From positions 12,379 through 76,378 of the forward strand of contig CAYWJH010000004.1 in NCBI GenBank assembly GCA_964458555.1: DNA of 64,000 nucleotides. Reading direction: 5' to 3'. Within the stretch, counting starts at the first letter, position 1, and each line of letters begins with the position of its first letter. This DNA is from an uncultured Spirochaetaceae bacterium (GTDB lineage: Bacteria; Spirochaetota; Spirochaetia; DSM-27196; SLST01). This document shows, in pieces, positions 3,303 through 34,171 of the stretch. The translations under genes were made by a program, and so were the position numbers. The notes below the pieces were generated by a model. The model was not told the DNA's origin, searched no databases, and saw only the letters and a program-made list of their open reading frames with translations.

Positions 3303-3320
3303 CGAAAAGACGGTGAGCTC

Positions 3321-5959: not shown

Positions 5960-5968
5960 AGTATCCTC

Positions 5969-7123: not shown

Positions 7124-7223
7124 GAGCGCTCCTATCCGGTTTTCCTGCAGTGTAAACGGCATCCGGAAATTCGGCAATCGCGTGACACGCGATAGCGAGG
7201 TGAGGTACAAAGGGTGAGTTCCC

Positions 7224-19643: not shown

Positions 19644-20615
19644 ATGCTCATCGACATGCCACTCGAGGAACTTCGCACGTACACCGGCCGCAACCCCCGC
19701 CCGCGCGACCTGGACGCGTACTGGGACCGCGCGCTCGCCGAGCTCGACGCGACCCCACCCGAGGTCGAGCTGAAGCCGGCGGCGTTTTCCGCTCCGCACG
19801 CCGAGTGTTACGATCTCTCCTTCACGGGTACCGGCGGCGCGCGGGTCCACGCGAAGGTCGTGAAGCCGCGCGATCCCTCGCCGTTGCGCGGCGACGGCGG
19901 CGCCCCCGGGCTCGTCCACTTCCACGGATACAGCGGGAGCGCGGGCGACTGGACCGCCTTCCTCGGCTGGGCGGGCGCCGGGTTCGTGAACGCCGCGCTC
20001 GACTGCCGCGGCCAGGGCGGCGAGAGCGAAGACACCGGAGGCGTTCTGGGAAATACGCTTCGCGGCCACATCATCCGCGGACTCGACGACCACGAGGACA
20101 AGCTCCTCTACCGGCAGATCTACCTCGACACCGTGCGCCTCGCGCGGATCGTGATGGACTTCGACGAGGTGGACCCCACGCGCGTGGGCGCGACCGGCGG
20201 CTCGCAGGGCGGCGGGCTCACCGTCGCCTGCTCCTCGCTCGAGCCGCGCATCGCGCGGTGCGCGCCGGTGTTTCCCTTCCTGTCGGACTACCGACGCGTG
20301 TGGGAAATGGACCTCGCAAAGAACGCGTACCAGGAGATCCAGGACTACTTCCGCCGCTTCGACCCCACGCACGAGCGCGAGGAGGAGGTCTTCACGCGGC
20401 TCGGCTACATAGATGTACACAATTTGAGCCCGCGGATCCGCGCGAACACGCTCATGTTCACCGGGCTCATGGACCAGGTCTGCCCGCCGTCCACGCAGTT
20501 TGCCGCGTACAACGCGATCACATCGACGAAGGCCATGGTGATCTACCCGGACTTCGGGCACGAGAACCTGCCCGGCCATCAGGACCGCGTCTTCGCCCAC
20601 ATGCTGGAGCTGTGA
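19644..20615 (+). CDS. Acetylxylan esterase / cephalosporin-C deacetylase (CE7 family)
   Basis: 323 aa. N-terminus MPLEELRTYTG..P.DLDAYW, nucleophile elbow GGSQGGGL, LMDQVCPPSTQFAAYN, FGHE. Confidence 0.85.
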   Translation: MLIDMPLEELRTYTGRNPRPRDLDAYWDRALAELDATPPEVELKPAAFSAPHAECYDLSFTGTGGARVHAKVVKPRDPSPLRGDGGAPGLVHFHGYSGSAGDWTAFLGWAGAGFVNAALDCRGQGGESEDTGGVLGNTLRGHIIRGLDDHEDKLLYRQIYLDTVRLARIVMDFDEVDPTRVGATGGSQGGGLTVACSSLEPRIARCAPVFPFLSDYRRVWEMDLAKNAYQEIQDYFRRFDPTHEREEEVFTRLGYIDVHNLSPRIRANTLMFTGLMDQVCPPSTQFAAYNAITSTKAMVIYPDFGHENLPGHQDRVFAHMLEL

Positions 20616-21208
20616 TGGCCCGCCGCGACCGCCCGGACCACTACACGAAGCGCGCGAGGCGCGAGGGATACCGGGCGCGCTCGGTCTACAAGCTGGAGGA
20701 GCTGCAGCGCCGCTTCGCGATCCTCGCCCCTGGGATGCGCGTGCTCGACGTGGGCGCCGCGCCCGGCAGCTGGACGCAGTACGCGCGGAAGGTGGTCGGC
20801 GGACGCGGCTCGATCGTCGCGGTCGACCTCTCCGAGCTCCCGGCGCTCGGGGGCCTTGATAACGTGGAGGTTGTTATCGGCGACGTCACCGACGAAGAAA
20901 TCGCGCGGCGGCTCGAGCACGCGGGACCGTTCGACGCGATCGTAAGCGACGCCGCGCCGAAGACGAGCGGCAACCGCACGCTCGACACCGCACGCTCGGC
21001 GGCGATCGTCGAGCACCTGCTCTGGCTCGCGCCGCGGCTCCTCGCTCGCGGCGGGCGTCTCGTCGCGAAGCTCTTCCAGGGCGGCGAGGAACAGGCGCTG
21101 CTCGGCGAGCTGCGCTCCCGGTTCGAGACCGCGCGGCTCGTGAAGCCCAAGGCGAGCAGGGACGAGAGCTTCGAGACGTTTCTCGTGGGGACGGGGTTTC
21201 GGGGATAG
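20615..21208 (+). CDS. rlmE: 23S rRNA (uridine-2'-O)-methyltransferase RlmE/FtsJ
   Basis: Last 198 codons of track ORF 19565-21208. RSVYKLEEL, SAM motif LDVGAAPGSWTQ, VSDAAPKTSG, KLFQG. ATG 20615 overlaps the esterase TGA (TGATG). Confidence 0.85.
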   Translation: MARRDRPDHYTKRARREGYRARSVYKLEELQRRFAILAPGMRVLDVGAAPGSWTQYARKVVGGRGSIVAVDLSELPALGGLDNVEVVIGDVTDEEIARRLEHAGPFDAIVSDAAPKTSGNRTLDTARSAAIVEHLLWLAPRLLARGGRLVAKLFQGGEEQALLGELRSRFETARLVKPKASRDESFETFLVGTGFRG

Positions 21209-21239
21209 CGCCGGGGCGGGAGCCGCGCCGGGGCGGCGC

Positions 21240-22274
21240 TCAGTACTCCCGGTCGAGGAGCTTGCCGGCGACCGCGCCGAGCGCCTCGCGCAGACGCGGC
21301 TCTCCCAACGCGCCGATCGCCCGTCGTGCGCGGGACGTGTAGGCCGCTGCGCTCGAGCGCGCGGCGCGAAGGCCGCCCGCATTTCGGATCGCGGCCACCG
21401 CCTCGCGGAGGCCGTCCTCGTCGGACGGCGGCGGCACGACCAGCTCCTGGATCCGCGGGTCCCGGGTCACCGCGACGATCACCGGCAGCGTGTAGATGCC
21501 CGCGCGGAGGTCGGAGGCGGCCGGTTTCCCGATCGCGTCCGGGCGAGCGGTGAAGTCGAGAATGTCGTCGATCACCTGAAACGCCATACCCAGGTTGTAG
21601 CCCGCTCGCGCGAGCATGGCGATCTGTCCGGCTTGCGCCTTCGTCTCCGACGCGCCGGTCACGAGGCTCAGCCCGAACAGCGTGGCGGTCTTGCCCGCGA
21701 TGCGGCGCAGATAGGCGCGGCGGCTGAACGCGTCTCGTCCGGCCTCGAACATCTGGTTGATCTCTCCGCGGACGAGGTGGCCGACGGCGGCGGCGAGGCG
21801 CAGCGCGTTCTCGCGCTCGGTCCCCTCGGCGATCATCGAGAAGCAGCGCGAGAGCAGATAATCGCCCATGAGCACCGCCTGCTTGCGGCCGTAGAGCGCG
21901 TGCAGCGACGGGTCGCCGCGGCGCCGGTCGGCGTCGTCGATCACGTCGTCGTGCACCAGGGTCGCGATGTGGAGCGTTTCTATCGCCGCGGCGATCTGGA
22001 TGAGCCGCTCGTCGGCGGGTCGATCCGATCGGCCACGGCCGGCCCACGATCCGATGAGCACGAAGCCCGGACGGAGCATCTTGCCAGGCCGGGCGACGTA
22101 CTGCGAGAGCGCGTTCCCGATCGGTCCGCCCGCCGAGGCGGCGACGTCGACCACGAGCTCGTGGATACGCCGCAGGTCGTGCGCGAGCTCCGGCACGTCG
22201 GCCCAGAACGGGAAGTCGGAGAATGGAAGGCCCCGCGAGGAAGCGGGGCCTGGAAGCGCAGCCGAGCTACTCAA
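21240..22274 (-). CDS. Polyprenyl diphosphate synthase (trans-isoprenyl, medium/long chain)
   Basis: 344 aa. FARM LVHDDVIDDADRRRG and SARM FQVIDDILDF. The TTG start at 22274 directly abuts the TAA stop of the upstream NDH-2 gene. Confidence 0.88.
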   Translation of the reverse strand: MSSSAALPGPASSRGLPFSDFPFWADVPELAHDLRRIHELVVDVAASAGGPIGNALSQYVARPGKMLRPGFVLIGSWAGRGRSDRPADERLIQIAAAIETLHIATLVHDDVIDDADRRRGDPSLHALYGRKQAVLMGDYLLSRCFSMIAEGTERENALRLAAAVGHLVRGEINQMFEAGRDAFSRRAYLRRIAGKTATLFGLSLVTGASETKAQAGQIAMLARAGYNLGMAFQVIDDILDFTARPDAIGKPAASDLRAGIYTLPVIVAVTRDPRIQELVVPPPSDEDGLREAVAAIRNAGGLRAARSSAAAYTSRARRAIGALGEPRLREALGAVAGKLLDREY

Positions 22275-24242
22275 TTACGGACGCGGCTCCCCGGTGTAGA
22301 GATAGGTCTTCTTCGCGAGCTTCGTACCATTCCACTTCTCGTGCAGCCACGGCATTACGTAGTGGTCGAGCCCGAATCCGCGTCCGGCACCGCCGAGCAT
22401 GACGATCGACGCCATGATGTACCACAGCAGCTCGGGGTTGCCCCAGCCGGACGCGATGAACATCACGCTGAAGCCGATCGAAACGACCGCGGCCGGGAAG
22501 GTGAGCAGTCCGCCAATAAGCGCGAGACCGATCGCCACCTGGCCGAGCACGACCGCGCTCTGGAGCAGGAAGGCGAGCAGCGGCGACGCGCTCAGGACCG
22601 TCTCCGCGAACCAGGTGTAGATGCCCAGCGCCTCGATGAGCGGCTCGCCGTACTCGCCCGCCGCAGCGGCACCCTCGCCCGCGGCCGGGGTTGCGGCGCT
22701 CGCCGCGTCGGTTGCGGCGCTCGTCGCGTCGCCGTAGTTCACTCCGGGCAGCTTGATCGCACCGGTCCACACCTCCGAAAGGCCCTCGTCGCCCGGATTG
22801 AGCCAGCCTTCGGTGATGTGCTTGATCCCTTCGGCGAGCCATTTGCCGCCGAGCCAAAGCCGCAGCGGGACCGCCCAGTAGACGGGGATCTTCCACGCAA
22901 AGTGGCCCTCCACGAAGGACCGCTGGTCCTTGATCGTGAGGAACTCGTGCTGGATATACTCCCAGACCGCGTTGATGCCCGCGAGCCCGAGGAGGTAGTG
23001 CATGTTGATGAGGTGCTTGACCCCCATCGCGAAGATGCCGGAGAGCGACATCCCCATGACGTGCGCAACGCCGTAGCGCCCGCCAATGGAGACCATGAAG
23101 CCGTGGTAGTTCGATTCGAACTTCTTCTTTTCCTTGCCCTCGATGTCGGCGATGACGTTTTCGGACGCCGTCTCCGCGGTCTGAAGCGCGGTCTCGACGA
23201 TCTGCGGAACGACCTTGTCGCCTTCGACGAACCAGATCATGTCGCCCACGAGGTAGACGTTGCGGTAGTCGACCGACTGCATCTGCTGGTTCACGAGCAC
23301 GCGCCCGCGCTGGCCGACGACGTAGCGCTCTTCCTCGTCGAAGTGACAGCCCGCCATGCCGTGGATACCCTCGACGGAGGCGACCGAGCACTCGTCGCTC
23401 GAGCACCTGCCCTTCGTCAGGGGGATCTTCGCGGTGAACTCTGACCCCTGGATACCGGCGGTCCAGATGAAGGTGTCGGTGGGCAGCTCACGGTCTTCTT
23501 CGAGCTTCACCACACCCTCGTCGGCGCCGACGATCGTCGTGCTGAGCATGACCTCGCAGCCGATCTTTTTGAGGTACTTCGCCGCCTTCACCTGCGGCTT
23601 GCCCGGCAGGTTCGGCAGAATGTTGTCCTTCATCTCGACGACGCGGATCGTGACCTCGTCCTTCTTGATGTGATACTTCGGGCAGAGCTGGTCACGGCGC
23701 TCGCAGAGCTCGCCGGCGAGCTCGATGCCCGTGAACCCGGCGCCGGCGATCACGAAGCTGAGCATGCGCTCGCGGATCTTCGGGTCCGGCTCCTTCGCCG
23801 CCTCGCGGAAGCGCTCCTCGACGTGGGTCCGGATCCGGATCGCGTCCTCGAGCGACCAGAGCGTGAAGCTGTTCTCCTGCACGCCCGGGATGCCGAAGAA
23901 CTCCGGCCGACCGCCGGTTCCGACGATCAGGTAGTCGTATTCGTACGACGCCGTCTCCGACTTCATGACGTTATTGTCGAAGTCGATCGACTCGATTTCG
24001 TCGATGAATACCTTTACATTCGTACCGGCGAAGATCTTCCGGAAGCTGACCTGGACCGCTTCGGGTTCGGTCCGCGAGCCGGCGATCTCGTGCAACTCGG
24101 TCATCAGCGTGTGATACGGGTTGCGATCGACGAGAAACACTTCGACGTCGTCGTTGCGCTTGAAGTGTTTGTAGAGCTTCTTGGCGGCTTCGACGCCACC
24201 GTAGCCGCCGCCGAGGACGGCGATCCTGGTTCTTTCAGACAT
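22275..24242 (-). CDS. Type II NADH dehydrogenase (NDH-2) with additional C-terminal membrane domain
   Basis: 655 aa. IAVLGGGYGGVEAAKKL and FVIAGAGFTGIELAGEL dinucleotide folds. After ~aa 420 come a W-rich amphipathic segment, an Ala/Thr/Gly linker and 3-4 TM helices. Confidence 0.85.
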   Translation of the reverse strand: MSERTRIAVLGGGYGGVEAAKKLYKHFKRNDDVEVFLVDRNPYHTLMTELHEIAGSRTEPEAVQVSFRKIFAGTNVKVFIDEIESIDFDNNVMKSETASYEYDYLIVGTGGRPEFFGIPGVQENSFTLWSLEDAIRIRTHVEERFREAAKEPDPKIRERMLSFVIAGAGFTGIELAGELCERRDQLCPKYHIKKDEVTIRVVEMKDNILPNLPGKPQVKAAKYLKKIGCEVMLSTTIVGADEGVVKLEEDRELPTDTFIWTAGIQGSEFTAKIPLTKGRCSSDECSVASVEGIHGMAGCHFDEEERYVVGQRGRVLVNQQMQSVDYRNVYLVGDMIWFVEGDKVVPQIVETALQTAETASENVIADIEGKEKKKFESNYHGFMVSIGGRYGVAHVMGMSLSGIFAMGVKHLINMHYLLGLAGINAVWEYIQHEFLTIKDQRSFVEGHFAWKIPVYWAVPLRLWLGGKWLAEGIKHITEGWLNPGDEGLSEVWTGAIKLPGVNYGDATSAATDAASAATPAAGEGAAAAGEYGEPLIEALGIYTWFAETVLSASPLLAFLLQSAVVLGQVAIGLALIGGLLTFPAAVVSIGFSVMFIASGWGNPELLWYIMASIVMLGGAGRGFGLDHYVMPWLHEKWNGTKLAKKTYLYTGEPRP

Positions 24243-24362
24243 GCGTTCTCCTTGCGTTCGGAGTGAGACGTACGAGTATGTGAGGAAAATAGTACCTTAT
24301 ATATCGATTTCGGTAAACACTTCTTTGCACTAAGCGCGCGATTTGTGCCAGAAAGAGGGACA
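24243..24362. promoter_or_regulatory. AT-rich divergent intergenic region between the NDH-2 and ApbE genes (putative divergent promoters)
   Basis: This is the most AT-rich spacer in this part of the window (..gaggaaaatagtaccttatatatcgatttcggtaaacacttctttgcac..). GAGGGA lies just upstream of ATG 24363. No specific operator recognised. Confidence 0.35.
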
Positions 24363-25493
24363 ATGCACAATAAACCACCTTCCGTCACAACAAATCGGTT
24401 TTATCCTGGATCGGTGCGGGCCGATTGGACCGTCTCGCCGGCGAGGTCGGTGGTCATCCGGGCCGCCACGGCGATCCTCGTCGCGGCGGCCGTGGCGCTC
24501 CTGCTCGCCGGCTGTGGCTCGGCGCCTACCGAGCGGCATTCGGAGACCGAGCTCCTGCTCGGAACGACCGTCAGCGTCACGACCTACGGCGACGTCCCCG
24601 ACGAGGTCTACTCGCGCGTCTTCGATCGCGTGCTCGAGATCGAAGAGAAGATGAGCACGAGCGAAGAGGACTATAGCATGACCGAGCTGATGGCGGTCAA
24701 CGACGCGGCCGGTGAGATGCCGATCGGCGTCTCCGAGGACACGTTCCGGGTCGTCGCGCAGGCCGTCGACTACTCGCGGCTCACCGGCGGCGCGTTCGAC
24801 GTCTCGGTACAGCCGCTCGTCTCGCTCTGGGGCATCGGAACCGAATGGGCCGCGATTCCGCCCGAAGAAGAGATTCGAGCGGCCGTCGCCGCGGTCGACT
24901 ACCGCGCCGTCCGGCTCGACCCGCCGAGCCAGGAGATCTTCCTCCCCGAGCCGGACATGGGCATAGACGTGGGCGGGATCGCGAAGGGGTACGCCGCAGA
25001 CGAGGCCGCGCGCATCCTCCGCGAGGAAGGGGTAGAGAGTGCGCTTCTCGACTTCGGCGGCAATATCCAGACGGTGGGGACGAAGCCCGACGGCTCGGCG
25101 TGGCGGATCGGTATCCAGGTGCCCGACGCGACGCGCGGACAGTACGTTGGCATCGCAGACGTCGTCGACCTCTCGGTCGTCACCTCCGGCACCTACGAGC
25201 GCTACTTCGTCGAGGACGGGGTTCGCTACCATCATATCCTCGACACGACCACCGGGCATCCGGTGCGCAACGGGCTCGCCAGCGTGACCATCATCACCGG
25301 CGAGTCGATCAGGGCCGATGCGTTGTCGACTGCGGTCTTCGCCATGGGGCTCGAGGACGGGCTCGCCTTCGTAGAGGGTCTCGCCGAGGTAGAAGCGTTC
25401 TTCGTGACGACCGAGCGCGAGGTCATCATGACCAGCGGCATGGACGAGTACTTCGAGCTGACGAACGAGCAGTTCACGCTGGCCGATCGCTGA
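24363..25493 (+). CDS. apbE: FAD:protein FMN transferase (ApbE family) lipoprotein
   Basis: Lipobox ALLLAGCGS. FDVSVQPLVSLWG, GGIAKGYAADEA, TSGTYERYF..YHHILDTTTGHP. The track start is GTG 24345. ATG 24363 behind GAGGGA is preferred. Confidence 0.88.
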   Translation: MHNKPPSVTTNRFYPGSVRADWTVSPARSVVIRAATAILVAAAVALLLAGCGSAPTERHSETELLLGTTVSVTTYGDVPDEVYSRVFDRVLEIEEKMSTSEEDYSMTELMAVNDAAGEMPIGVSEDTFRVVAQAVDYSRLTGGAFDVSVQPLVSLWGIGTEWAAIPPEEEIRAAVAAVDYRAVRLDPPSQEIFLPEPDMGIDVGGIAKGYAADEAARILREEGVESALLDFGGNIQTVGTKPDGSAWRIGIQVPDATRGQYVGIADVVDLSVVTSGTYERYFVEDGVRYHHILDTTTGHPVRNGLASVTIITGESIRADALSTAVFAMGLEDGLAFVEGLAEVEAFFVTTEREVIMTSGMDEYFELTNEQFTLADR

Positions 25494-25505
25494 CGCGGGC
25501 CGGCG

Positions 25506-26354
25506 CTACCGGCAGAGCCGGTTCGGAAGCGGCGCCTCGACCCGGTCGCGCGCGATCCGCTCGGCGAGCGCGACGAATCGCGCCGACGACAACGTCGCCC
25601 CGGCGACGGCGTCGACCTGCGGCTCGGACGGCTGCGCGGCGATCAGGCGTTCGACGAGCGTGGACCCGACCTCCGCCGACGTGATCCCGGATGCGGTCGC
25701 AAAGCGTTCCTGGTAGGCAGCGTCGTCGCGCTTGCGACGCACCGACCCGTCGAGCTCGCGACGCACCTCGCGGTACGAGCCGGCGGTAAGGCCGTCGCCG
25801 TCGTAGGCGAGCACGAGCTCCGCACGCCAGCCGAGCTCGTCGGGCTCGTCGGAGGCGGTGTACGGTCCGGGCGTCGCGACGACATCGAGCCCGGCGGCGT
25901 CCGTCGTGAGCCCGACCTTCGCGGCCGCGAGCGCGCGCCGGGCGAGCACGTCGAAAGTGACCGACCACGTCACCGCGTTCACGGCTGCGGGCAGCGGCAC
26001 CGTCTGACGCTCGATCAGTCGCGAGCGTAGCTCGTCGAAGAGCGCGAGCAGATCGGTCCCGGTATCGAGACGGTAGCGCTCGACGAAACGCTCGGTCTCC
26101 GAGAGGCGCTCCCCGGCCGCGTCGACCGCGTCGAAGCAGACGATGTCCACGAGCCCGGCGCGCACGCGCAGGTAGATGAAGGGACGCCACCCCTCGGGAC
26201 CGGTGTGCGAGTAGGCCGCTGCGTACGTGCCGTCGCGGTAGAGCGGCGTTCCGTCGGCCGCGCGGAGCGCATCGGGGTCGGTCTCGGGCGGACCGCACGC
26301 GACGAGTACCGAAGCCGCGGCTACGAGGACGAGGAGCTCAGAACGTCTGCGCAT
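25506..26354 (-). CDS. FMN-binding-domain lipoprotein (candidate ApbE substrate)
   Basis: Internal ATG 26354 gives MRRRSELLVLVAAASVLVACG (lipobox). Two DGTY/PGPY-type half-domains. The C-terminal VDAVAGATLSS matches the flavinylation consensus Dxx(s/t)gA(T/S). The track extension to 26630 is Arg/Ser-rich junk overlapping the next gene. Confidence 0.7.
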   Translation of the reverse strand: MRRRSELLVLVAAASVLVACGPPETDPDALRAADGTPLYRDGTYAAAYSHTGPEGWRPFIYLRVRAGLVDIVCFDAVDAAGERLSETERFVERYRLDTGTDLLALFDELRSRLIERQTVPLPAAVNAVTWSVTFDVLARRALAAAKVGLTTDAAGLDVVATPGPYTASDEPDELGWRAELVLAYDGDGLTAGSYREVRRELDGSVRRKRDDAAYQERFATASGITSAEVGSTLVERLIAAQPSEPQVDAVAGATLSSARFVALAERIARDRVEAPLPNRLCR

Positions 26355-26718
26355 CGACCCCGTCCTCGTCTTCGGCGCCCTCCACGCGAACGAAGACGCG
26401 GTTGGGCAGGCAGGCGGTCCACTGTCCGGACTGGTCAAGCCATCCGGCGGCGATGCAGAGCTTGTCGCGGCACGGGCTCGAATGGACGTGCACTCGCCCC
26501 TCCTCGATCTCGACGACCGTGTCGCCGAGCGGTCCGGCGACCGGGATCGTGCGGTCGACGTCGAGCGGGTAGAGGAAGGTACCCTCGTCGGTCTCGATGC
26601 TGACCTCGCTCGCCTGCGCGCGTCCGCCAAAGGCGAAGACGCTCGCGGCGACGACCGTCGCGATGGACACGAGGAGCGCGACGTAGTCGAGCGGGCGTGT
26701 CACGAACCGTCGGCTCAT
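26338..26718 (-). CDS. NusG domain II-like (DUF1312) single-pass membrane protein
   Basis: 126 aa. N-terminal TM LDYVALLVSIATVVAASVFAF, then beta-rich ..VEIEEGRVHVHSSPCRDKLCIAAGW..GQWTACLPNRVFVRVEG.., the pattern I associate with DUF1312/NusG_II. The 3' end overlaps the next gene start by 17 nt. Confidence 0.65.
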   Translation of the reverse strand: MSRRFVTRPLDYVALLVSIATVVAASVFAFGGRAQASEVSIETDEGTFLYPLDVDRTIPVAGPLGDTVVEIEEGRVHVHSSPCRDKLCIAAGWLDQSGQWTACLPNRVFVRVEGAEDEDGVDAQTF

Positions 26719-26734
26719 GGTTCGACGCCCATCC

Positions 26735-27481
26735 TTACTTCCGCCGCTTGTCGCGGATGTAGATCTGCTTCCCGGCCGAGTTCACGGTCGAGCGTTCGTC
26801 GATGTGGAAGAGATCGATCGCCGTCACGAGCTCGCCGAGCTTCTTGTACCCGTAGTTGCGCGGGTCGAACTCGGGCGCCTTGTTGGCGATATTCTGTCCC
26901 ACCGTACCCAGGTTCGCCCAGCCGGTCTCATCGGCGGAGTCTTCCGTGGCGTTGCGAAGGAGATTGACCAGGCGCGAATCGCTCTTCATCTCGCGCGCCG
27001 TCATCGGCTTCTTCGTAGCCTCTGCCTTCTCGTCCTCCTGGCGGAGAATCTCGGTGAAGATGAACCGGTCGCAGGCGCCCACGAAGGCCTTGGGCGTCTT
27101 CTGCTCGCCGAAGCCGTAGACGATGAGCCCCGCCTCGCGAATCCGCGCGGAGAGGCGCGTGAAGTCGCTGTCGCTCGACACGACGCAGAACCCGTCCATC
27201 GTCTCGGTATAGAGCAGATCCATCGCGTCGATGATCATCGCGCTGTCGGTCGCGTTCTTGCCGCGGGTGTAGGCGAATTGCTGGATGGGCTGGATCGCGT
27301 GCTCGAGCAGGACTTCCTTCCACCCCTTCAGGTGGGTGCTCGTCCAGTCTCCGTAGATGCGTTTGACGGTCGCAACGCCGTAGTTCGCGATCTCTTCGAG
27401 CAGACTCTCGATAATGTCGGGCCGGGTATTGTCGGCATCAATAAGGACGGCCAATCGTTTCTGACCCTCGCTGTTTGGCAT
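26735..27481 (-). CDS. NYN-domain (LabA-like) protein with C-terminal OST-HTH/LOTUS domain
   Basis: 248 aa. LAVLIDADN, NATDSAMIIDAMD, CVVSSDSDFTRL (NYN). C-terminal GWANLGTVGQNI..FDPRNYGYKKLGELV (LOTUS-like). Confidence 0.85.
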   Translation of the reverse strand: MPNSEGQKRLAVLIDADNTRPDIIESLLEEIANYGVATVKRIYGDWTSTHLKGWKEVLLEHAIQPIQQFAYTRGKNATDSAMIIDAMDLLYTETMDGFCVVSSDSDFTRLSARIREAGLIVYGFGEQKTPKAFVGACDRFIFTEILRQEDEKAEATKKPMTAREMKSDSRLVNLLRNATEDSADETGWANLGTVGQNIANKAPEFDPRNYGYKKLGELVTAIDLFHIDERSTVNSAGKQIYIRDKRRK

Positions 27482-27554
27482 GTGTAGACACTACGGCATC
27501 GGGCGCGGATGATCAATGGTTGACAGATCGGGCGGGTCGATCGATGCTTAGCCG

Positions 27555-28244
27555 ATGAACTGGTGGGGCATCGTCGTATCGTTCGGCTTCGTATTCGGTT
27601 TCATCGGCATCGCTCAGCTGCTGCTGCGCGCCGGGCGGATCTCTCCTTCGGTCACGCGCAAGGTCGTCCATATTGGCGTCGCTCACTGGTGGATCCTGGC
27701 GATGGTCTTCTTCGACCGCTGGGAGTTCGCAATCGTCGGCCCGGCGGCGTTCATCCTCATCAATCTCGCGAGCTATCTCTTCCGGCTCTTCCCCGCGATG
27801 GAGCACGAGAAGCGGAGCCGAAACCTGGGAACGGTCTACTTTCCGGTAGCGCTCCTCGCGTGCGTGCTGCTGACGTGGGCGGGGCCGGTGCCCATCTGGG
27901 TCGGCGGTCTGGCGATCCTCGTGCTCGGCTGGGGTGACGGGCTCGCCTCCGTCGTGGGCGAGAGTCGCGGATCGGGCTTGCTGACGGTGTTCGGCGCGAC
28001 GAAGAGCATCGCAGGAACGGTGACCATGTTCGTCGTCTCCACCGTCGTGGTCACCGTCTTCGTCCTTCTGTTCCTCGCGCCGGGCCCACTTGGAAGCGCC
28101 GGCGGCGACCCGGCGGTCGCGGTGCTCGTCGTGCGGATCCTCGCGACAGCGCTCGTGGCCACGCTCGTCGAGCTCGCGACTCCGTTCGGGCTCGACAACC
28201 TCACGGTGCCGATCGTGACGCTCCTGTTCTTCCATCTCGTATGA
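27555..28244 (+). CDS. Polyprenol (phytol/dolichol-type) kinase, CTP-dependent family
   Basis: 229 aa, polytopic. RKVVHIGVAHWW and GWGDGLASVVGE motifs. The TGA overlaps the next ATG. Confidence 0.7.
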   Translation: MNWWGIVVSFGFVFGFIGIAQLLLRAGRISPSVTRKVVHIGVAHWWILAMVFFDRWEFAIVGPAAFILINLASYLFRLFPAMEHEKRSRNLGTVYFPVALLACVLLTWAGPVPIWVGGLAILVLGWGDGLASVVGESRGSGLLTVFGATKSIAGTVTMFVVSTVVVTVFVLLFLAPGPLGSAGGDPAVAVLVVRILATALVATLVELATPFGLDNLTVPIVTLLFFHLV

Positions 28245-29101
28245 CCGACCAGCCCGTCCTGCTTGGGATCGTCGCCGTTCTCCTCAACGCCGGCGCGGGG
28301 TACGGCGCGTGGCGCCGCGGATCGGTGACCGCCGGCGGCGGGGTGGCCGGCGCGGTCGTCGGCGCCGTCATCCTCTTCGCCGGCGGGTTCACGTACTGGA
28401 TCATGCTGATGCTGTTTTTCGTGAGCTCGACCCTCGCGAGTCGTCTGGGCATCCGGCGAAAAAGACGGCTCGAGCGGATGCACGAGAAGGGCAGCCGCCG
28501 CGACGCGGTCCAGGTCTTCGCCAACGGGGCCGTTGCCGCCGTCGCCGTGGTCGCGCTTCGCACGACCGGAGGGCCGGTGTTCGCGCTCGCGGCGGCGGGC
28601 GCCTTTGCGAGCGTGAACGCGGACACGTGGGCGAGCGAGCTGGGGGTGCTCGCGAGGCGGCCGCCCCGGTCGATCGTGACCTGGCGGGAGCTCGAGCCGG
28701 GCACGTCCGGCGGCGTGTCGGTTCCCGGTACCGTCGCGGCCGCTGCCGGGTCGCTGGCGATCGCGGTGTGGTTCGCGCTTTCGGTGGGCTTCGCGGGTGA
28801 GCCGATGGAGGGCGCCGGGGGCGCGTTGCTCGCTCCCGCGACGATCGGGCCGGCCGCGGCGCTTCTCGTCGTCTGGCTCGCCGGGTTCGTCGGGACGACC
28901 GCGGACAGCGTGCTCGGCGCGACGGTGCAAGCGCTCTACCGCGACGAAAGCGGCGCGATCACCGAGCGCCGGCGCGGACCCGATGGCCCCAACGAACGCG
29001 CGCGGGGGATCCCGTTCGTGACGAACGACGTCGTGAACGCGGTGAGCTCGATCGTCGCGGCGGTTGCTGCGGGGTACGGGGGCAGCGTGCTGGGCGCGTA
29101 G
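28241..29101 (+). CDS. DUF92 / TMEM19-family membrane protein (VTE6-like polyprenyl-phosphate kinase candidate)
   Basis: 286 aa, polytopic. ..RRDAVQVFANGAVAAV.., ..NADTWASELG.., GTSGGVSVPGT. ATGA overlap with the upstream kinase at 28241-28244. Confidence 0.72.
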   Translation: MTDQPVLLGIVAVLLNAGAGYGAWRRGSVTAGGGVAGAVVGAVILFAGGFTYWIMLMLFFVSSTLASRLGIRRKRRLERMHEKGSRRDAVQVFANGAVAAVAVVALRTTGGPVFALAAAGAFASVNADTWASELGVLARRPPRSIVTWRELEPGTSGGVSVPGTVAAAAGSLAIAVWFALSVGFAGEPMEGAGGALLAPATIGPAAALLVVWLAGFVGTTADSVLGATVQALYRDESGAITERRRGPDGPNERARGIPFVTNDVVNAVSSIVAAVAAGYGGSVLGA

Positions 29102-29135
29102 GGCGCCTGAGGGCCGTGCCAGGCCGCCGACCCGC

Positions 29136-30428
29136 TCAGCTGCGCGCGCCGCGGCTGCCCGGCTCCTTCAGCCGGACGAACCGGACCTGGTTGCGGCCGT
29201 TCTCCTTGGCGATATAGAGCGCCTTGTCGGCGGCGTGCACGATGCGCGTCAGCGCGTGCCGCGGCGAGCGGCGCTCGGAGATACCCATGGATACCGTCAC
29301 GCCGATCCGCTTGCTGCCGAACGACGTTTCCATCTCTTCGATCGAGGCGCGCAACCGCTTCGCGAGCGGCACGACATCGCGGCCGGCCCGCCCCGGGAAG
29401 AAGACGATCAGCTCCTCACCGCCGTAGCGGCAGACCACGCCCTCGGGGATGACCGCCTTCTGGATCGCCTGCGCGACCGCGAAGAGAATGCGATCGCCCG
29501 CCTGATGACCGTACGTGTCGTTCACCTGCTTGAAGTGGTCTATGTCGATCATCATCACCGCGAAGGGCGGGCGGGTCGGCACGCTCGACTGCTCGGCGAG
29601 GATCTGGTTGCAGTACTCACGGTTGTAGATCTGCAGCAGCGGGTCGTATGAGACGCGGTGCTCCATGCGGGCGAGCAGGTGGGCGATGATCGCCGCGATC
29701 AGGAAGAGCGGCGCGGCCGTGGCGAAGAGCAGCATCACCACGTGCGGCGAGGTCGCGCTGTACCCGACGAAATCGAGCGCCGGCGGCAGCACCCACGAGC
29801 CGCCGGCGAGCACTGCGAGCCCCACGAACGCTCCGCGGAGATAGAAGCTCTGGGGACGCATGAGCGCGTTGATGACGAGCACCCCCACCGTGAGCGTCGC
29901 AGCGACGAGGACCGGGACCGAGACGAGACGTTCGGGCTCGAGCACCGCGAGAACGCCAACGGTCGCGGGGAAGAACCTGACTACCGCCAGAAGCACCACC
30001 TGCGCCGCGACGAGGATCCAGGTCGCGAGGCGTGTCGTGCGATAGGTGGGAAACGGCGGGACAAAGGTGTACGCGTAGGTGAGCCCGAGCGCGAGCGCGT
30101 AGACGAGGCGAGCGTAGCCGTCGGGCGGGTCGGGCACGAAGTCCGCATAGTAGCCACCGAAGCCGATGAAGAGCGCGAGGAGAACGCTGTGCAACCCCAC
30201 CGAGTACCCGGCGAGGTAGACGCGAAGATTCTGCACGCGAGGGTACGAGACGTGCCCGGCGAAGAGCGCGAGAGTGCCAAGCGCAAGCGCCGCCGACGGC
30301 AGGATCGTCCGCGTCAGCGCAACCGGAGGCAGCGGACCGGCGGCAACCGCGGCCGCCGCGATGCCGCCGAGGAGCGCCAGCGCCACGACGAGCAGCAAGC
30401 TTCCCCATCGGGCAGACCGGACGATCAT
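29136..30428 (-). CDS. Membrane-anchored diguanylate cyclase (GGDEF)
   Basis: ~8 N-terminal TM helices, then YDPLLQIYNREY..MMIDIDHFKQVNDTYGHQAGD..CRYGGEELIVFF. ATG 30428 (MIVRSARW..) overlaps the thyX TGA (ATGA). The track start is 30446. Confidence 0.85.
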   Translation of the reverse strand: MIVRSARWGSLLLVVALALLGGIAAAAVAAGPLPPVALTRTILPSAALALGTLALFAGHVSYPRVQNLRVYLAGYSVGLHSVLLALFIGFGGYYADFVPDPPDGYARLVYALALGLTYAYTFVPPFPTYRTTRLATWILVAAQVVLLAVVRFFPATVGVLAVLEPERLVSVPVLVAATLTVGVLVINALMRPQSFYLRGAFVGLAVLAGGSWVLPPALDFVGYSATSPHVVMLLFATAAPLFLIAAIIAHLLARMEHRVSYDPLLQIYNREYCNQILAEQSSVPTRPPFAVMMIDIDHFKQVNDTYGHQAGDRILFAVAQAIQKAVIPEGVVCRYGGEELIVFFPGRAGRDVVPLAKRLRASIEEMETSFGSKRIGVTVSMGISERRSPRHALTRIVHAADKALYIAKENGRNQVRFVRLKEPGSRGARS

Positions 30429-31336
30429 AGCTGACCGCCGCCCCACAGCTTCGCTACGAAGCGGTCGGCGGCCCTGCCGGTAATCCCGGCCGCCTCGGCC
30501 GCGGTACGCGCCCGCGTTTCGAGGTCACCTGCAGCGGCCCCGGCATCTGCGGTCTCGCTCGCCGGCGCGCCCGCGCTCAGCATCGTCTGCAGCGCATCGA
30601 GCTCGTCGCGCGAGAACCGGACCCCGGCGAGCATGTGTCGCCCGAACGACGCGCACGCAGCCGGACACACCTTTTTCGCGATTTCGAACATCTGCGTCGC
30701 GTAGAGGCGGATCTCCTTCTGGGCGTGCGCGTCCATGCGCAGCTTCAGAAAGCGAAAGAGATTGTGGAGGTCGATCTGCCAGTACCACTCGGTGTAGAGA
30801 CTCAGGGGCAGGTTGATGCGCGCGAGCTCCCGGGCGATCCCGTCGTCGAGGAGCTTCGTGTAGGAGGCGTAGGCGTCGGCCTGGCCCGCGCGCACGAGCG
30901 CCTGAACGCGCGCCTCCTCGTCGGACGACAGCCGCTCCTCGGATCGGCCCTGCTTGTTGTCGGCGCTCTGGACCGCGATGTCTTCGCCCGAAGGCACGTA
31001 GAACTCGTCCTTCATGACGCTGTAGCGGCCGCTGATCTCGTTGAGTCGCGCCATCCGGTGGCGGACCCACTGCCGCGCGACGAAGATGGGCATCTTCGCG
31101 TGAAAGGTCAGCACGACCTGCTCGAACGGCGAGGTGTGCTCGTTGCGCAGGAGGTAATCGATGAGCGCCGCGTCCTTGCGGTAGCTCTTCGTGCCCTCGC
31201 CGTAGGATACGCGCGCCGACTGGACGATCCGCTGGTCGCCACCGAGGTAATCGACGAGCCGCACGAACCCCTTGTCGAGGACCGGGAACTCGCGGTCGAG
31301 AATCTCTTCTGCTTCGGGAACGACGACGTGTGCCAT
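30425..31336 (-). CDS. thyX: FAD-dependent thymidylate synthase ThyX
   Basis: Internal ATG 31336 gives MAHVVVPEAEEILDREFPVLDKGFVRLVDYLG. ThyX motif RHRMARLNEIS (RHR-x7-S). ~60-aa Ala/Gly-rich C-terminal tail. Confidence 0.88.
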   Translation of the reverse strand: MAHVVVPEAEEILDREFPVLDKGFVRLVDYLGGDQRIVQSARVSYGEGTKSYRKDAALIDYLLRNEHTSPFEQVVLTFHAKMPIFVARQWVRHRMARLNEISGRYSVMKDEFYVPSGEDIAVQSADNKQGRSEERLSSDEEARVQALVRAGQADAYASYTKLLDDGIARELARINLPLSLYTEWYWQIDLHNLFRFLKLRMDAHAQKEIRLYATQMFEIAKKVCPAACASFGRHMLAGVRFSRDELDALQTMLSAGAPASETADAGAAAGDLETRARTAAEAAGITGRAADRFVAKLWGGGQL

Positions 31337-31427
31337 GAGCCTCCACGCATTATCCGCGGGCCGGCGCCGGCTGTAAAGAAGCTGCGGCTCTGGCCCAACC
31401 CGCGGCGCTTCACTACCTTCTTCGCGT

Positions 31428-32594
31428 ATGATCGATCGGCTCCGACGCGCACTCGCAGTCATCACCCTTGTCGTGGCCACCGCCGGACCGATCGCAGCCC
31501 AGGAGGAACTCGTCACGGTCTTCAGCGAATCACGGGACGACCGGTCGGTCGTGCTGCGGGCGAGCAGCACGCACATCGTTCCGGTCTATCTGACGGTCGA
31601 CCTTCCCCGACTCATCAACATGCAACCCGACGCCGAGCTCCCCTACGGTGTCCAGCTCGATCCGGGTTCCCAGGGGGTCAAGCTGTTCACGCTGAGCCCA
31701 ACCGCGCGGCAGGGACGGATCGGCTACAGCGTCTCCTACAGCTACGCCCGGGGCAACCCGGAAACCGCGAAGCACGACGACGATTTCCGCTACGTCGTTC
31801 CGTTCGCGCACGGCGAGAAGCGCAGGCTCTCGCAGGGGTTCGGGGGCCGATTCTCGCACTACGGAGAGAACGAGTACGCGATCGACTTCGAGATGCCGGG
31901 GGGAACGCCGGTGTTCGCCGCGCGCGGCGGCGTCGTGGCGGAGGTGAAGGAAGACTCGCGTGTTGGCGGGACGAGCGCAAGCTACGGTGACGACGCAAAT
32001 TACATCCTCGTCATGCACGAAGACGGCAGCTTCGCCAACTACGCGCATCTGCGGTACGGCGGGGCGGAAGTCGCGCCCGGTGACCGCGTGAGCGAAGGGC
32101 AGCTCGTCGGCTACAGCGGCAATACGGGACGCTCCTCGGGCCCGCACCTCCACTTCGACGTGCGCATCCCCACCCGCGAGGGCCGAATGCAGTCGATTCC
32201 CTTCCTCCTCCGCGGACCGGACGGGCAGGCGCTCGCCCCGGAGGAAGGCCGATTCTACTACGCCTACCACCCCGGCGGACCCGAGTTCCGCGCGGAGTTC
32301 GGGCGCGACATCGTCGCCTCCGACTTCGCCGGCTACGCCGAGCCGTTCACCGCGCGCGAGGACGTCGACGCGCGCGTCGAACAGGTCGACTTGACCTTCG
32401 TCCTCTTCGTCCAGAACGGCTACGACCGCGAGGTGGAGGTGGAGATCTCGCTCGACCTCCGCGGGCTCCGTTCGGACAACGGCCGGCGGATCACACGGAC
32501 GGTACCGCCGCAGACCGAGCTCTTCCTCACCATCCTCCGCCCCATCGACGGCGCCTCGGGCATCCAGTACGGGTACAGCCTCAGGGCGCGGTAG
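31428..32594 (+). CDS. M23-family metallopeptidase, secreted
   Basis: Signal peptide ALAVITLVVATAGPIAAQEE. YAIDFEMPGGTPVFAARGG, HEDGSFANYAHL, GNTGRSSGPHLHFDV. Confidence 0.85.
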   Translation: MIDRLRRALAVITLVVATAGPIAAQEELVTVFSESRDDRSVVLRASSTHIVPVYLTVDLPRLINMQPDAELPYGVQLDPGSQGVKLFTLSPTARQGRIGYSVSYSYARGNPETAKHDDDFRYVVPFAHGEKRRLSQGFGGRFSHYGENEYAIDFEMPGGTPVFAARGGVVAEVKEDSRVGGTSASYGDDANYILVMHEDGSFANYAHLRYGGAEVAPGDRVSEGQLVGYSGNTGRSSGPHLHFDVRIPTREGRMQSIPFLLRGPDGQALAPEEGRFYYAYHPGGPEFRAEFGRDIVASDFAGYAEPFTAREDVDARVEQVDLTFVLFVQNGYDREVEVEISLDLRGLRSDNGRRITRTVPPQTELFLTILRPIDGASGIQYGYSLRAR

Positions 32595-33405: not shown

Positions 33406-33744
33406 ATGCTTCTGAATCCAGCTTTCACGGAAGAGAAACTCAAAACCGCCAGGGAGATGAGTGAGAGGATAGTACAACGTATCGATCCCGAAATCGTTTT
33501 GCTTTTCGGTTCGGTTGCCAGAGGATGTGCTCGTGAGTCGAGCGACATCGATCTGCTCATTGTTAGGGAGAGTAATATGACGTTTAAGGAACGCATGAAC
33601 GTACTCTATTCCGAAATCGACAGATCCGATGACGTTGACTTACTGTGGTACACGAATACTGAGCTCGAAACGATGAAACCAAAAAGCTCGTTTATCCGCA
33701 TGGCGCTACGCGAAGGAACGGTACTGTATGAACGAAACCGATAA
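33406..33744 (+). CDS. Minimal nucleotidyltransferase (MNT; MntA-type antitoxin)
   Basis: 112 aa. GSVARGCARESSDIDLLIV (GS-x9-DxD). Low-GC region. 17-nt overlap with the downstream HEPN gene. Confidence 0.85.
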   Translation: MLLNPAFTEEKLKTAREMSERIVQRIDPEIVLLFGSVARGCARESSDIDLLIVRESNMTFKERMNVLYSEIDRSDDVDLLWYTNTELETMKPKSSFIRMALREGTVLYERNR

Positions 33745-34171
33745 AAACCGGAATGTGGATAGCGAAGCTGTTCGATGGTTGGAACAAGCACGTCAGGACT
33801 ACAAGAGTGCCGAGGTTCTGCGGGACGGCGAGCGATACTATATGGTTTGCTTTATTTCGCAGCAGATCGCGGAGAAAGCACTCAAAGCATATCTGTATAG
33901 CCGAGGACACGACCTTGTTTTCGGACACTCGGTGGCCAAGCTATGCGATTCGTGCGTGCCCTATGATCCGAAGTATTCCGAGCTCAAATCGGAAATCAAA
34001 AACCTGGATCAATACTACATAGCAGCACGATACCCGAACGGATTACCTGAAAGCGTTCCGGCCGAGTTTTTCGATGAAACCGACGCACGCCATGCTTTGG
34101 CGATGGCAAAACAGGCACTCGATACGGTGGAAACCGATGTACGTCGGCCACCGGACGAAAGCCGCAGTTGA
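33728..34171 (+). CDS. HEPN-domain protein (HepT-type toxin candidate)
   Basis: 147 aa, helical. ..ISQQIAEKALKAYLYSRGHDLVFGHSVAKLCD..QYYIAARYP.. is typical of PF05168-type HEPN partners of MNT. I do not see a clean Rx4-6H spacing. Confidence 0.8.
   Translation: MNETDKNRNVDSEAVRWLEQARQDYKSAEVLRDGERYYMVCFISQQIAEKALKAYLYSRGHDLVFGHSVAKLCDSCVPYDPKYSELKSEIKNLDQYYIAARYPNGLPESVPAEFFDETDARHALAMAKQALDTVETDVRRPPDESRS

Follow-up and report, generated by a model that had tools for sequence, protein, structure and literature searches.

Organization of the gene pair

The stretch of DNA analysed here, referred to as the window, comprises 64,000 nucleotides from an uncultured Spirochaetaceae bacterium and contains two overlapping genes on its forward strand. 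Gene 1 (27555..28244) starts with an ATG and encodes a protein of 229 residues (P1), gene 2 (28241..29101) equally starts with an ATG and encodes a protein of 286 residues (P2), and the TGA stop codon of the former overlaps with the start codon of the latter in an ATGA at 28241..28244 (junction sequence ctcgtATGAccgac). Both ORFs, their overlap and all sequence motifs quoted in a first-pass annotation of the window were found where it had placed them. The two frames carry the coding signature of a genome with a GC content of 66.6% (GC3 of 0.87 versus GC2 of 0.45 in gene 1 and 0.91 versus 0.58 in gene 2), and with hundreds of homologues each at E<=0.001 (694 database proteins for P1 and 816 for P2) they constitute real genes and not chance ORFs. 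The ATGA overlap implies a likely coupling of the translation of gene 2 to that of gene 1, and a Shine-Dalgarno-like sequence was not seen ahead of the gene 2 ATG. In the 73-bp gap upstream of gene 1, a sigma-70-like match on the forward strand (TAGACA-17-GATGAT, 27485..27513) was the single site found in a scan of positions 26600-29500, compared to 0.1 expected from shuffled sequences, which makes it a candidate promoter of the two-gene operon by consensus match only.

Family relationships and conserved motifs of P1 and P2

By comparison of its profile to those of VTE5 and CdsA, P1 is assigned as a homologue of prenol kinases of the VTE5/FOLK/PolK type, within the COG0170 superfamily. A profile of 40 P1 homologues (A1) aligned with a plant phytol kinase profile (A2), assembled from 21 database proteins named phytol kinase or VTE5, with an hhalign probability of 99.3% (E=4.4e-20) over 200 columns, which cover P1 residues 9-229 and thus the whole catalytic domain, whereas the probability for E. 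coli CdsA was 0.3%. The role of the VTE5 bait was limited to the retrieval of real proteins, and P0242 matches it with 100% identity along 86% of its length. The expectation of the first-pass annotation that P1 would not group with CdsA-type enzymes was borne out by these values, while the HMM scans that it had proposed gave a divided result, with a DUF92 match for P2 and neither a CTP_transf_1-like nor a phytol kinase match for P1. In a scan of Pfam and NCBIfam, P1 obtained no match even at E<=10, PF01148 included. Both collections lack a dedicated model for the P1/VTE5 family and a precomputed Pfam match is absent from all but 2 of 120 listed plant VTE5 orthologues. Since real VTE5 proteins are thus mostly devoid of Pfam matches, we do not count the missing match against the membership of P1. 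Searches of PDB sequences with the single P1 sequence and with its profile returned nothing meaningful, with CdsA and CarS included among the searched entries. The identity between P1 and plant VTE5 amounts to only about 25-29%, so substrate specificity is not transferable from one to the other, and JGI and NCBI list homologues of P1 as 'phytol kinase' or 'diacylglycerol/polyprenol kinase family'. An AF2 model of P1 (pLDDT 89.7, pTM 0.87) contains eight main helices (2-25, 31-52, 61-76, 92-108, 114-138, 152-174, 185-208 and 214-228), which agree with the peaks in its hydropathy, and a beta-hairpin (residues 142-151); the Plasmodium polyprenol kinase PolK was modelled with the same number of transmembrane helices (PMC10849223).

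Four blocks of invariant residues are common to the P1 homologues and plant VTE5. The first (R35-K36-V-V-H39, 27657..27671), which opens the motif RKVVHIGVAHWW at residues 35-46, contains R35, K36 and H39, each invariant in the 40 homologues; their counterparts in plant VTE5 are R106, K107 and H110, which are likewise invariant. R35, K36 and H39 also correspond to a charged clamp of Arg29, Lys30 and His33 in a model of Plasmodium PolK, an enzyme with experimental validation (PMC10849223), and by analogy the R-K-x-x-H clamp of P1 is proposed to hold the phosphates of the nucleotide. The core catalytic motif (G125-W-G-D128-G-L-A-S-V-V-G135-E136, 27927..27962), quoted as GWGDGLASVVGE and spanning residues 125-136, harbours the invariant aspartate, with G125, G127, D128, G129, A131 and G135 being invariant among the 40 homologues. 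It aligns with G206-D207-G208-x-A210-D-x-x-G214 of VTE5, and its [GA]-D-x-x-A-x-x-x-G block is the part of P1 that can be weakly aligned with CdsA and DUF92. At the end of the beta-hairpin, K150-S-I-A-G154 (28002..28016), with invariant K150 and G154, aligns with K228-S229-x-x-G232 of VTE5. A C-terminal acidic motif of invariant residues (E206 ... T209-P210-x-G212-x-D214-N215-x-x-x-P219, 28170..28211) finds its equivalent in E279 ... D289-N290 ... P294.

The assignment of P2 to DUF92 in the first-pass annotation is confirmed by a match to PF01940 (E=6.8e-64, 216.1 bits compared to a cutoff of 27.5) that extends over profile positions 5-251 of 251. P2 also matches TIGR00297 with 107.7 bits, below the equivalog cutoff of 205.85, and is on these scores classified as a member of the DUF92 family and not as an equivalog of the TIGR00297 seed group. 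Since the plant protein VTE6 (At1g78620) is listed under COG1836 (PMC3223725) and COG1836 equals pfam01940 (PMC5898192), P2 is a predicted integral membrane protein of the DUF92/COG1836 family whose tie to VTE6 goes via this common Pfam and COG family. In an alignment of 31 DUF92 homologues, four regions stand out: a polar motif (R87-D88-A-V-Q91-V-F-A-N95, 28499..28525) with invariant R87, D88, Q91 and N95, which is overlapped by the quoted QVFANGAVAAV (residues 91-101); a core acidic motif (N126-A-D128-T-W-A-S-E133-L-G135, 28616..28645), quoted as NADTWASELG (residues 126-135), with invariant A127, D128, T129, W130, E133 and G135; and the invariant columns of D222-S223-x-x-G226-x-x-x-Q230 (28904..28930) and N262-D263-V-V265-N266 (29024..29038). 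The invariant acidic residues comprise D88, D128, E133, D222, E242 and D263, in keeping with what would be expected for a metal- and nucleotide-dependent enzyme. The core acidic motif is in all likelihood the counterpart of G-D-G-x-A in P1 and of A-D-S-G-A in CdsA: the block aligns weakly with P1 and with ADSGAYMFG of E. coli CdsA (probability 1.9% for the latter), and Makarova et al. have reported an HHpred probability of 97.6% for DUF92 versus pfam01148 with conservation of the metal-binding aspartates (PMC5898192). A search of PDB sequences with the single P2 sequence returned nothing meaningful, and fold searches provided no significant support for any mechanism.

Conservation of the pair and its genomic surroundings

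P1 and its DUF92 partner are almost obligatorily adjacent, overlapping or fused, with P1 always preceding P2. In 77 of 80 loci from related species, P1 is immediately followed by DUF92 in the same orientation, either as a separate gene (57 loci) or within a fusion (20 loci), a count that is inflated by shared ancestry as most of these loci come from one phylum. Two of the remaining three loci are located at contig ends, and in the third (L038), P1 has no adjacent DUF92 and adjoins glycosyltransferase and sulfotransferase-like genes. Including the window, 39 of 58 unfused junctions show a four-nucleotide ATGA or GTGA overlap and seven more overlap in a different manner. The conservation as neighbours, whose absence the first-pass annotation would have taken as a refutation, is thus found, and it extends to fusions: in a set of 1.84 billion proteins, the bacterial P1 family of several thousand clusters has 5,296 representatives at E<=0.001. 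Of the best 150 of these, 34 (23%) are fusions, invariably in the order P1 then DUF92. No third fused domain that would point to a consumer of the product was present among these 150 representatives. The natural fusions encompass about 470-510 residues, and an AF2 model of one of them is confident throughout (pLDDT 92.8, pTM 0.83). They were found across spirochaete groups (Alkalispirochaeta, Treponema, Gracilinema and Rectinemataceae), and outside of Spirochaetota the pair is kept with all other neighbours being different in Thermotogota, Proteiniborus, Tissierella, Clostridium hominis and Acholeplasmataceae. A survey of gene fusions does not mention this pair (PMC4921024). DUF92 was also encountered without a P1-like neighbour in two Paenibacillus loci (L082 and L086) and in L084, so its role need not depend on a prenol kinase.

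Upstream of the pair, the window contains a group of genes that we assigned from Pfam and NCBIfam matches and that are described here as context only. It consists of a HepT-like polyprenyl synthase of the long-chain type (21240-22274, reverse strand), an NDH-2 with a C-terminal extension of 274 residues lacking a Pfam match (22275-24242, reverse), an ApbE flavin transferase (24345-25493, forward), a PplA-like FMN lipoprotein whose start is probably over-extended (25506-26630, reverse) and which weakly matches NF041941 (E=8e-16, 58 bits compared to a cutoff of 325), and a NusG_II-domain protein (26338-26718, reverse). An ORF at 20579-21382 on the reverse strand was dismissed as spurious in light of its Arg/Ala-rich translation. 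The separation of 0.8 kb between pair and block proposed in the first-pass annotation applies to the NusG_II gene, which ends at 26718, 837 bp upstream of the pair with a NYN/LOTUS gene in between, but not to the polyprenyl synthase, which is 5.3 kb away. At least one gene of the block is found upstream of the pair at 32 of 57 loci with sufficient flanking sequence, all 32 from Spirochaetota, whereas the block is gone from the other 25; it is seen again in L087. The link to a quinone and flavin block drawn by the same annotation is thus reflected in synteny, but since it is confined to spirochaetes, it is only suggestive. In unbiased clustering of neighbours, only the electron-transfer block, ThyX, GGDEF and a protein of about 840 residues, which probably corresponds to the GH31 glycosidase in L087, were recurrent, and no other isoprenoid-related gene recurred. 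In three loci (L066, L075 and L078), an isoprenyl diphosphate synthase of the short-chain type abuts the pair.

The block was compared to the FLEET locus for flavin- and quinone-based extracellular electron transfer, whose gene list includes Ndh2, PplA, FmnB/ApbE, DmkB and DmkA, EetA/B and FmnA (PMC9888254). Present in the block are the polyprenyl synthase, the extended NDH-2, ApbE and the weak PplA match; a scan of genes in the 11-33 kb region yielded no DmkA/UbiA-type prenyltransferase, and literature support for an equivalence of the NusG_II protein with EetA was not found.

Proposed role in the salvage of isoprenoid alcohols

The described properties suggest that P1 and P2 would form a translationally coupled operon for the membrane-bound salvage of isoprenoid alcohols in two steps. 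P1 would phosphorylate a free prenol at the expense of a nucleotide triphosphate to yield a prenyl monophosphate; the donor is CTP in every characterised relative, and the characterised enzymes prefer this nucleotide (PMC9782597). P2, as a member of the VTE6 family, would add a second phosphate to yield a prenyl diphosphate, which could be used by prenyltransferases and chain-elongating synthases, and the nearby long-chain polyprenyl synthase may be a consumer that takes the product as allylic primer. We place moderate confidence in such a coupled operon converting a prenol via its monophosphate into the diphosphate in a non-phototroph. The two-step salvage route already put forward in the first-pass annotation gains support from homology and gene linkage, from which we infer the kinase chemistry of both steps, with CTP dependence, consecutive action and the assembly of both proteins into a complex being equally predicted.

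The same two-enzyme logic operates in VTE5 and VTE6 of plants and cyanobacteria, which together convert phytol to phytyl diphosphate in feeding experiments in E. coli (reviewed in PMC9782597). This plant and cyanobacterial pair, together with FOLK (farnesol kinase) and Plasmodium PolK, represents the closest known system: the homology of P1 to VTE5 extends across the entire catalytic domain and includes all invariant motifs, and P2 belongs to the same Pfam and COG family as VTE6. In contrast to the plant genes, which are unlinked, their spirochaete counterparts overlap or are fused and reside in a non-photosynthetic host. In this host, the context of chlorophyll and tocopherol is absent, and phytol is thus not an obvious substrate: for a Spirochaetota bacterium that is not phototrophic, farnesol or geranylgeraniol would be the more plausible choice, and phytol is unlikely as the specific substrate. 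In the literature, neither family has a characterised member from bacteria that lack photosynthesis. An even closer parallel in gene organization is found in archaea, where fusions of a Sec59-like COG0170 domain with COG1836/arCOG02245, such as Mbar_A3310, contain the same two domains in the same order (Makarova et al. 2015, PMC5898192). The published prediction is alike, a kinase step in isoprenoid biosynthesis with a linked prenyl diphosphate synthase gene (PMC5898192). The archaeal proteins are described solely as fusions with uppS as conserved neighbour (PMC5898192), whereas the spirochaete module is bacterial, consists mostly of two overlapping genes with frequent fusions, and neighbours polyprenyl synthases of the trans-type.

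Different roles have to be weighed against this proposal. P1 shares its superfamily with dolichol kinase (Sec59/DolK), a polytopic enzyme that depends on CTP to phosphorylate an isoprenoid alcohol, and P1 might in a similar way act on a long-chain polyprenol such as undecaprenol to regenerate the polyprenyl monophosphate for cell-envelope glycans, with DUF92 carrying out a different associated step that does not lead to a diphosphate. The name 'diacylglycerol/polyprenol kinase family' given by NCBI to P1 homologues, the archaeal neighbour uppS, a cis-prenyltransferase that makes the carrier lipid, and the glycosyltransferase and sulfotransferase-like genes next to P1 in L038 would all fit such lipid-carrier recycling. 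DolK itself has long-chain dolichol as its substrate, goes no further than the monophosphate and lacks a DUF92 partner. However, as a monophosphate suffices for a carrier, the near-obligate coupling or fusion to a second kinase-like domain would be left unexplained, VTE6 as the one characterised DUF92 protein makes a diphosphate, and the sole profile test that bears on this question revealed a strong, full-length similarity of P1 to VTE5-type kinases of short prenols, all of which renders this role unlikely. Still less probable is a second step in which DUF92 would move CMP from CTP to the prenyl phosphate formed by P1, thus generating a CDP-prenol instead of a prenyl diphosphate. It draws on the distant relationship of DUF92 to the pfam01148 cytidylyltransferases with their conserved metal-binding aspartates, on the alignment of ADTWASELG in P2 with the described CdsA segment and on the presence of CdsA and CarS among non-significant fold matches, but it is at odds with the reported formation of phytyl diphosphate by VTE6, with the very weak similarity measured between P2 and CdsA, and with the lack of a recurring CDP-prenol-consuming enzyme near the pair.

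A remote superfamily relationship links the pair to CdsA and CarS (CTP_transf_1, PF01148), which transfer a cytidylyl and not a phosphoryl group to a lipid phosphate. It runs through the [GA]-D-x-x-A-x-x-x-G motif, is reported in the literature (PMC5898192) and is faintly visible here. That P1 would itself be a phosphatidate cytidylyltransferase of the CdsA type might be suspected from the historical annotation of plant VTE5 as 'phosphatidate cytidylyltransferase family', the marginal match of the VTE5 bait to PF01148 (E=6.4e-5, below cutoff) and the best TM-score of TmCdsA (0.33-0.39) in a non-significant Foldseek list. We consider this identity highly improbable and have rejected it, since it is contradicted by the PF01148 scan, the profile search of the PDB and the hhalign comparison described above. 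A significant sequence, profile or fold match to these proteins was not found. An incidental synteny of P1 and DUF92 without functional coupling could be argued from the shared ancestry of most of the 80 loci. It is opposed by the preservation of the pair amid otherwise entirely different neighbours in Clostridia, Thermotogota and Acholeplasmataceae, by fusions in several spirochaete groups and in nearly a quarter of the best 150 family representatives, by the published archaeal fusions, and by the loss at 25 of 57 loci of an upstream block that is equally syntenic. With 77 of 80 loci adjacent or fused, we have rejected a chance adjacency, to which we assign next to no probability.

Collectively, the spirochaete pair appears to be a real but largely expected module for the salvage of isoprenoid alcohols. 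The underlying idea is not new, as the same logic of clustering and fusion was published in 2015 for archaea and used to predict VTE6; with COG0170-COG1836 fusions described at that time, the pair adds to an already described type. According to recent literature, prenol salvage has been assigned to genes only in plants, cyanobacteria and Plasmodium, and polyprenyl-phosphate kinases are known from plants alone (PMC10849223, PMC9782597). It is conceivable, though we regard it as doubtful, that the pair, and above all its natural single-chain fusions, constitute the long-sought prokaryotic route from farnesol and geranylgeraniol to FPP and GGPP in non-phototrophs, which would here prime the adjacent DmkB-like synthase for the quinone side chain of a FLEET-like periplasmic electron-transfer system of NDH-2, ApbE and PplA. 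If true, scavenged prenols would enable a fermentative, mat-dwelling organism to make a quinone for respiration. Two weak annotations would also be corrected, as 'phytol kinase' is too specific a name in non-phototrophs and 'DUF92 domain-containing protein' conveys too little. The compact natural fusions offer convenient targets for biochemistry and could serve metabolic engineering by feeding cheap prenols into FPP- and GGPP-dependent pathways. For the family, the near-constant overlap or fusion with a VTE5-type kinase provides strong genomic support for the view that DUF92 proteins in general work together with prenol kinases.

An overlapping gene pair and the families of its products

The two genes lie on the forward strand, where an ATG-initiated reading frame at 27555..28244 encodes P1, a candidate prenol kinase of 229 residues, and a second, also starting with ATG, encodes the 286-residue protein P2 (28241..29101). 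The TGA of the former overlaps the ATG of the latter at 28241-28244 (...ctcgtATGAccgac...). Both frames and their overlap, described in the first-pass annotation, are evident in the raw sequence of the window, and all four peptide motifs quoted there were found in the two proteins. The window has a GC content of 66.6%, and in both frames GC3 is about 0.9 compared to about 0.5 for GC2, as is characteristic of coding sequence in this genome. At E≤0.001, database searches gave 694 relatives of P1 and 816 of P2, the nearest of which belong to uncultured Spirochaetaceae and Spirochaetota MAGs, with identities up to 98-100%. The sole sigma-70-like match (27485-27513; 0.1 expected by chance) lies within the 73-bp gap 5' of the P1 gene, no terminator-like site was detected between the two genes, and on its 3' side the P2 gene is separated by 35 bp from the end of a convergent GGDEF gene.

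HMM scans have recovered the DUF92 assignment of P2 proposed at first pass, with PF01940 matching the protein end to end (E=6.8e-64, 216 bits), whereas for P1 neither Pfam nor NCBIfam gave a match, even with the threshold relaxed to E≤10, and no PDB chain was recovered, either by sequence or by profile. Taken at face value, this result speaks against the proposed relationship of P1 to the plant phytol kinase VTE5, which was thus tested directly. An Arabidopsis VTE5 bait sequence, used for retrieval only, recovered authentic entries that databases name phytol kinase or VTE5 and that come from many plants, including P0242, which shows 100% identity to this bait over 86% of its length. Since only 2 of the 120 authentic VTE5 orthologues listed have a precomputed Pfam domain, the missing match of P1 reflects a property of the family rather than counter-evidence. 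In profile comparisons (hhalign) built from database sequences only, with the bait excluded, 40 P1 homologues aligned with 21 plant phytol kinases at a probability of 99.3% (E=4.4e-20) over 200 columns comprising the whole catalytic domain, compared to 0.3% with the phosphatidate cytidylyltransferase CdsA of E. coli; the P1 and DUF92 profiles gave 15%, and plant VTE5 and CdsA 12%. The invariant positions of the P1 family (R35, K36, H39, G127-D128-G129, K150, E206 and D214-N215) align with those of VTE5, and the R-K-x-x-H element has its counterpart in a 'charged clamp' for which a role in positioning the phosphates of CTP was suggested in PolK, an experimentally validated prenol kinase of Plasmodium (PMC10849223). 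A confident AlphaFold model of P1 (pLDDT 89.7, pTM 0.87) contains eight membrane helices and a beta-hairpin. Its comparison to the PDB with Foldseek returned nothing significant, the sole sensible weak match being Thermotoga CdsA (probability 0.47-0.60, TM 0.33-0.39). Judged against plant VTE5 and E. coli CdsA, we classify P1 by its sequence as a homologue of prenol kinases of the VTE5, farnesol kinase (FOLK) and PolK type, and as no more than a remote superfamily relative of CdsA.

With respect to P2, the match to TIGR00297 (107.7 bits) stays under the equivalog cutoff of 205.85, and an alignment of 31 homologues defines D88, D128, D222 and D263 together with E133 and E242 as invariant acidic residues. 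Its family is tied through published sources to VTE6, the plant phytyl-phosphate kinase, for which prokaryotic COG1836 comparisons gave the first hint of function (PMC9782597, PMC10849223): COG1836 equals pfam01940 and arCOG02245 (PMC5898192), and its listing includes At1g78620 with a 2011 prediction of 'phytol-phosphate metabolism' (PMC3223725).

Conserved linkage of the two genes

The proposed conservation of the pair as neighbours is borne out in the best 80 of 513 P1-positive genomes, from a survey in which each GTDB species was represented by one genome. In 77 of these 80 loci, DUF92 follows P1 directly and in the same orientation, as a separate gene in 57 and within the same reading frame in 20, and two of the remaining three are contig ends, leaving L038 as sole real exception. 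This locus (1117-4920), the only one with P1 but no adjoining DUF92 although 3.2 kb of sequence follows, continues with a sulfotransferase-like gene and a GT2/polysaccharide pyruvyl-transferase gene, a glycan-synthesis context. Counting that of the window, 58 junctions are unfused; in 39 of these the genes share 4 nt as ATGA or GTGA, and 7 show another kind of overlap, which, together with the absence of a Shine-Dalgarno-like sequence ahead of the P2 start in the window, is compatible with translational coupling. A one-base frame change at such an ATGA/GTGA-type junction is enough to yield a fusion. An exhaustive profile search over 1.84 billion representatives identified 5,296 P1 relatives at E≤0.001; 34 of the best 150 contain both domains, always in the order P1 then DUF92, and no third domain was found in these 34 fusions. 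The pair is kept beyond Spirochaetota, in Thermotogota, Proteiniborus, Tissierella, Clostridium hominis, an oral Clostridiales and Acholeplasmataceae, where all remaining neighbours differ.

The natural fusion P0240 gave a model of good overall confidence (pLDDT 92.8, pTM 0.83), and a fold search with it gave no informative match. Fused proteins of the Alkalispirochaeta/Spirochaeta clade (L034, L035, L041, L043, L044, L054, L058, L060, L063, L068, L070, L071 and the 597-residue P0367) carry an extra segment of about 320-430 nt (about 110-140 residues) that separates DUF92 from the end of the alignable P1 domain. Their P1 alignment ends near residue 180, and the C-terminal P1 helices may, as judged from sequence, have diverged or been replaced.

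Viewed from the DUF92 side, in six more distant loci, a P1-like gene is located directly upstream in three (L083, L085, L087) and is lacking in L084 and two Paenibacillus loci. P1 thus nearly always brings DUF92, whereas DUF92 is not bound to P1 and can stand alone. In Paenibacillus (L082 and L086), the DUF92 gene at 5001-5849 overlaps the end of an FAA_hydrolase-family gene by 4 nt. It has ferrochelatase and protoporphyrinogen-oxidase-like genes on its upstream side and a TetR regulator gene on the other, which is a different conserved context.

Genomic surroundings

Upstream of the pair, a block at 21240-26718 encodes a long-chain, HepT/DmkB-like polyprenyl synthase (closest to hexaprenyl/heptaprenyl synthase, with scores below the cutoffs), an NDH-2 whose C-terminal extension of 274 residues matches nothing in Pfam, an ApbE flavin transferase, a weakly matching PplA-like FMN lipoprotein with TTG start (25506-26630, reverse strand) and a NusG_II-domain protein (26338-26718, reverse strand). 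Because the PplA-like frame overlaps that of the NusG_II protein by 293 nt, its true start is probably located further downstream. The same probably holds for the ThyX frame at 30425-31576, which shares 22 nt with the GGDEF gene and has about 100 N-terminal residues outside its Thy1 domain. Between block and pair, a gene for an NYN ribonuclease-like protein with OST-HTH/LOTUS domain (26735-27481, reverse strand) occupies a position that is shared in 26 of 73 related loci.

The block recurs and is conserved in spirochaetes (L002, L004, L005, L007, L025, L026, L049, L050, L055, L074, L087). Of the 57 loci with enough flank, 32, all Spirochaetota, have one or more of its genes upstream of the pair, as does L087. 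This linkage is much looser than that between P1 and P2 and could reflect inherited synteny. It resembles part of the FLEET locus for extracellular electron transfer (gene list in PMC9888254), although the latter is Gram-positive and the block described here belongs to a diderm phylum. The genes scanned, those from 11 to 33 kb of the window, include no prenyltransferase of the DmkA type.

In Sediminispirochaeta and Marispirochaeta loci, a short-chain-type isoprenyl diphosphate synthase directly abuts the pair (L066, 5064-6176, reverse; L075, 1347-2486, forward; L078, 6035-7162, reverse), with best NCBIfam matches to IdsA/GGPPS/FPPS and encapsulin-cargo polyprenyl transferase, all below cutoffs. 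In archaea, uppS is a conserved neighbour of COG1836 (Makarova et al. 2015, PMC5898192). Three different kinds of prenyl diphosphate synthase hence recur beside the P1-P2/COG1836 module, which would fit, as circumstantial evidence, with a product that feeds chain elongation. Unbiased clustering of neighbours revealed no further isoprenoid gene.

Elsewhere in the window, a DUF212 'divergent PAP2' membrane protein (17798-18223, forward, E=9e-36) is encoded 9 kb upstream of the pair; PAP2-type enzymes include polyprenyl-diphosphate phosphatases, which catalyse the reverse of the proposed salvage reaction. A nucleotidyltransferase (Polbeta/NTP_transf_2, 33406-33744, forward) overlapping a HEPN gene (33728-34171, forward), both confirmed by Pfam, is assigned by sequence to the MNT-HEPN toxin-antitoxin type; overlapping frames around it (e.g. 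33692-33928) do not show the elevated GC3 that marks genes in this genome. At 72-7195, three long forward-strand frames from the GC3-based gene finder have a GC1 of 0.88-0.95 and lower GC3, which suggests real genes on the opposite strand or an unusual regional composition.

A proposed salvage route

The best-supported explanation, which we consider probable, is a coupled two-step salvage route, where P1 would phosphorylate a free prenol to the monophosphate, which P2 would convert to the diphosphate; we infer the salvage chemistry, the nucleotide preference and the substrate. That P1 instead acts as carrier-lipid kinase resembling dolichol kinase, with DUF92 doing something else, appears unlikely, and the formation of a CDP-prenol by a CdsA-like DUF92 even more so. 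An identity of P1 as CdsA is highly improbable in light of the profile comparison and the missing Pfam and PDB matches, and an incidental adjacency is scarcely credible given the downstream DUF92 in nearly all loci and the frequent fusions. We also regard it as unlikely that prenol salvage supplies quinone for a FLEET-like system.

Parts of this relationship have been recognized before. Annotation pipelines name P1 homologues 'phytol kinase' or 'diacylglycerol/polyprenol kinase family', the plant VTE5/VTE6 pair is already characterised, and archaeal Sec59-like/COG1836 fusions had been described, with a predicted kinase step in isoprenoid metabolism (Makarova et al. 2015, PMC5898192). The literature searched contains no characterised member from a bacterial non-phototroph. 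Our analysis has added a direct profile test by which the P1 family of bacteria belongs with VTE5 rather than CdsA, it has quantified the near-obligate adjacency, overlap and fusion of both genes in bacteria, and it has revealed a spirochaete-specific association of the pair with the polyprenyl synthase/NDH-2/ApbE block.
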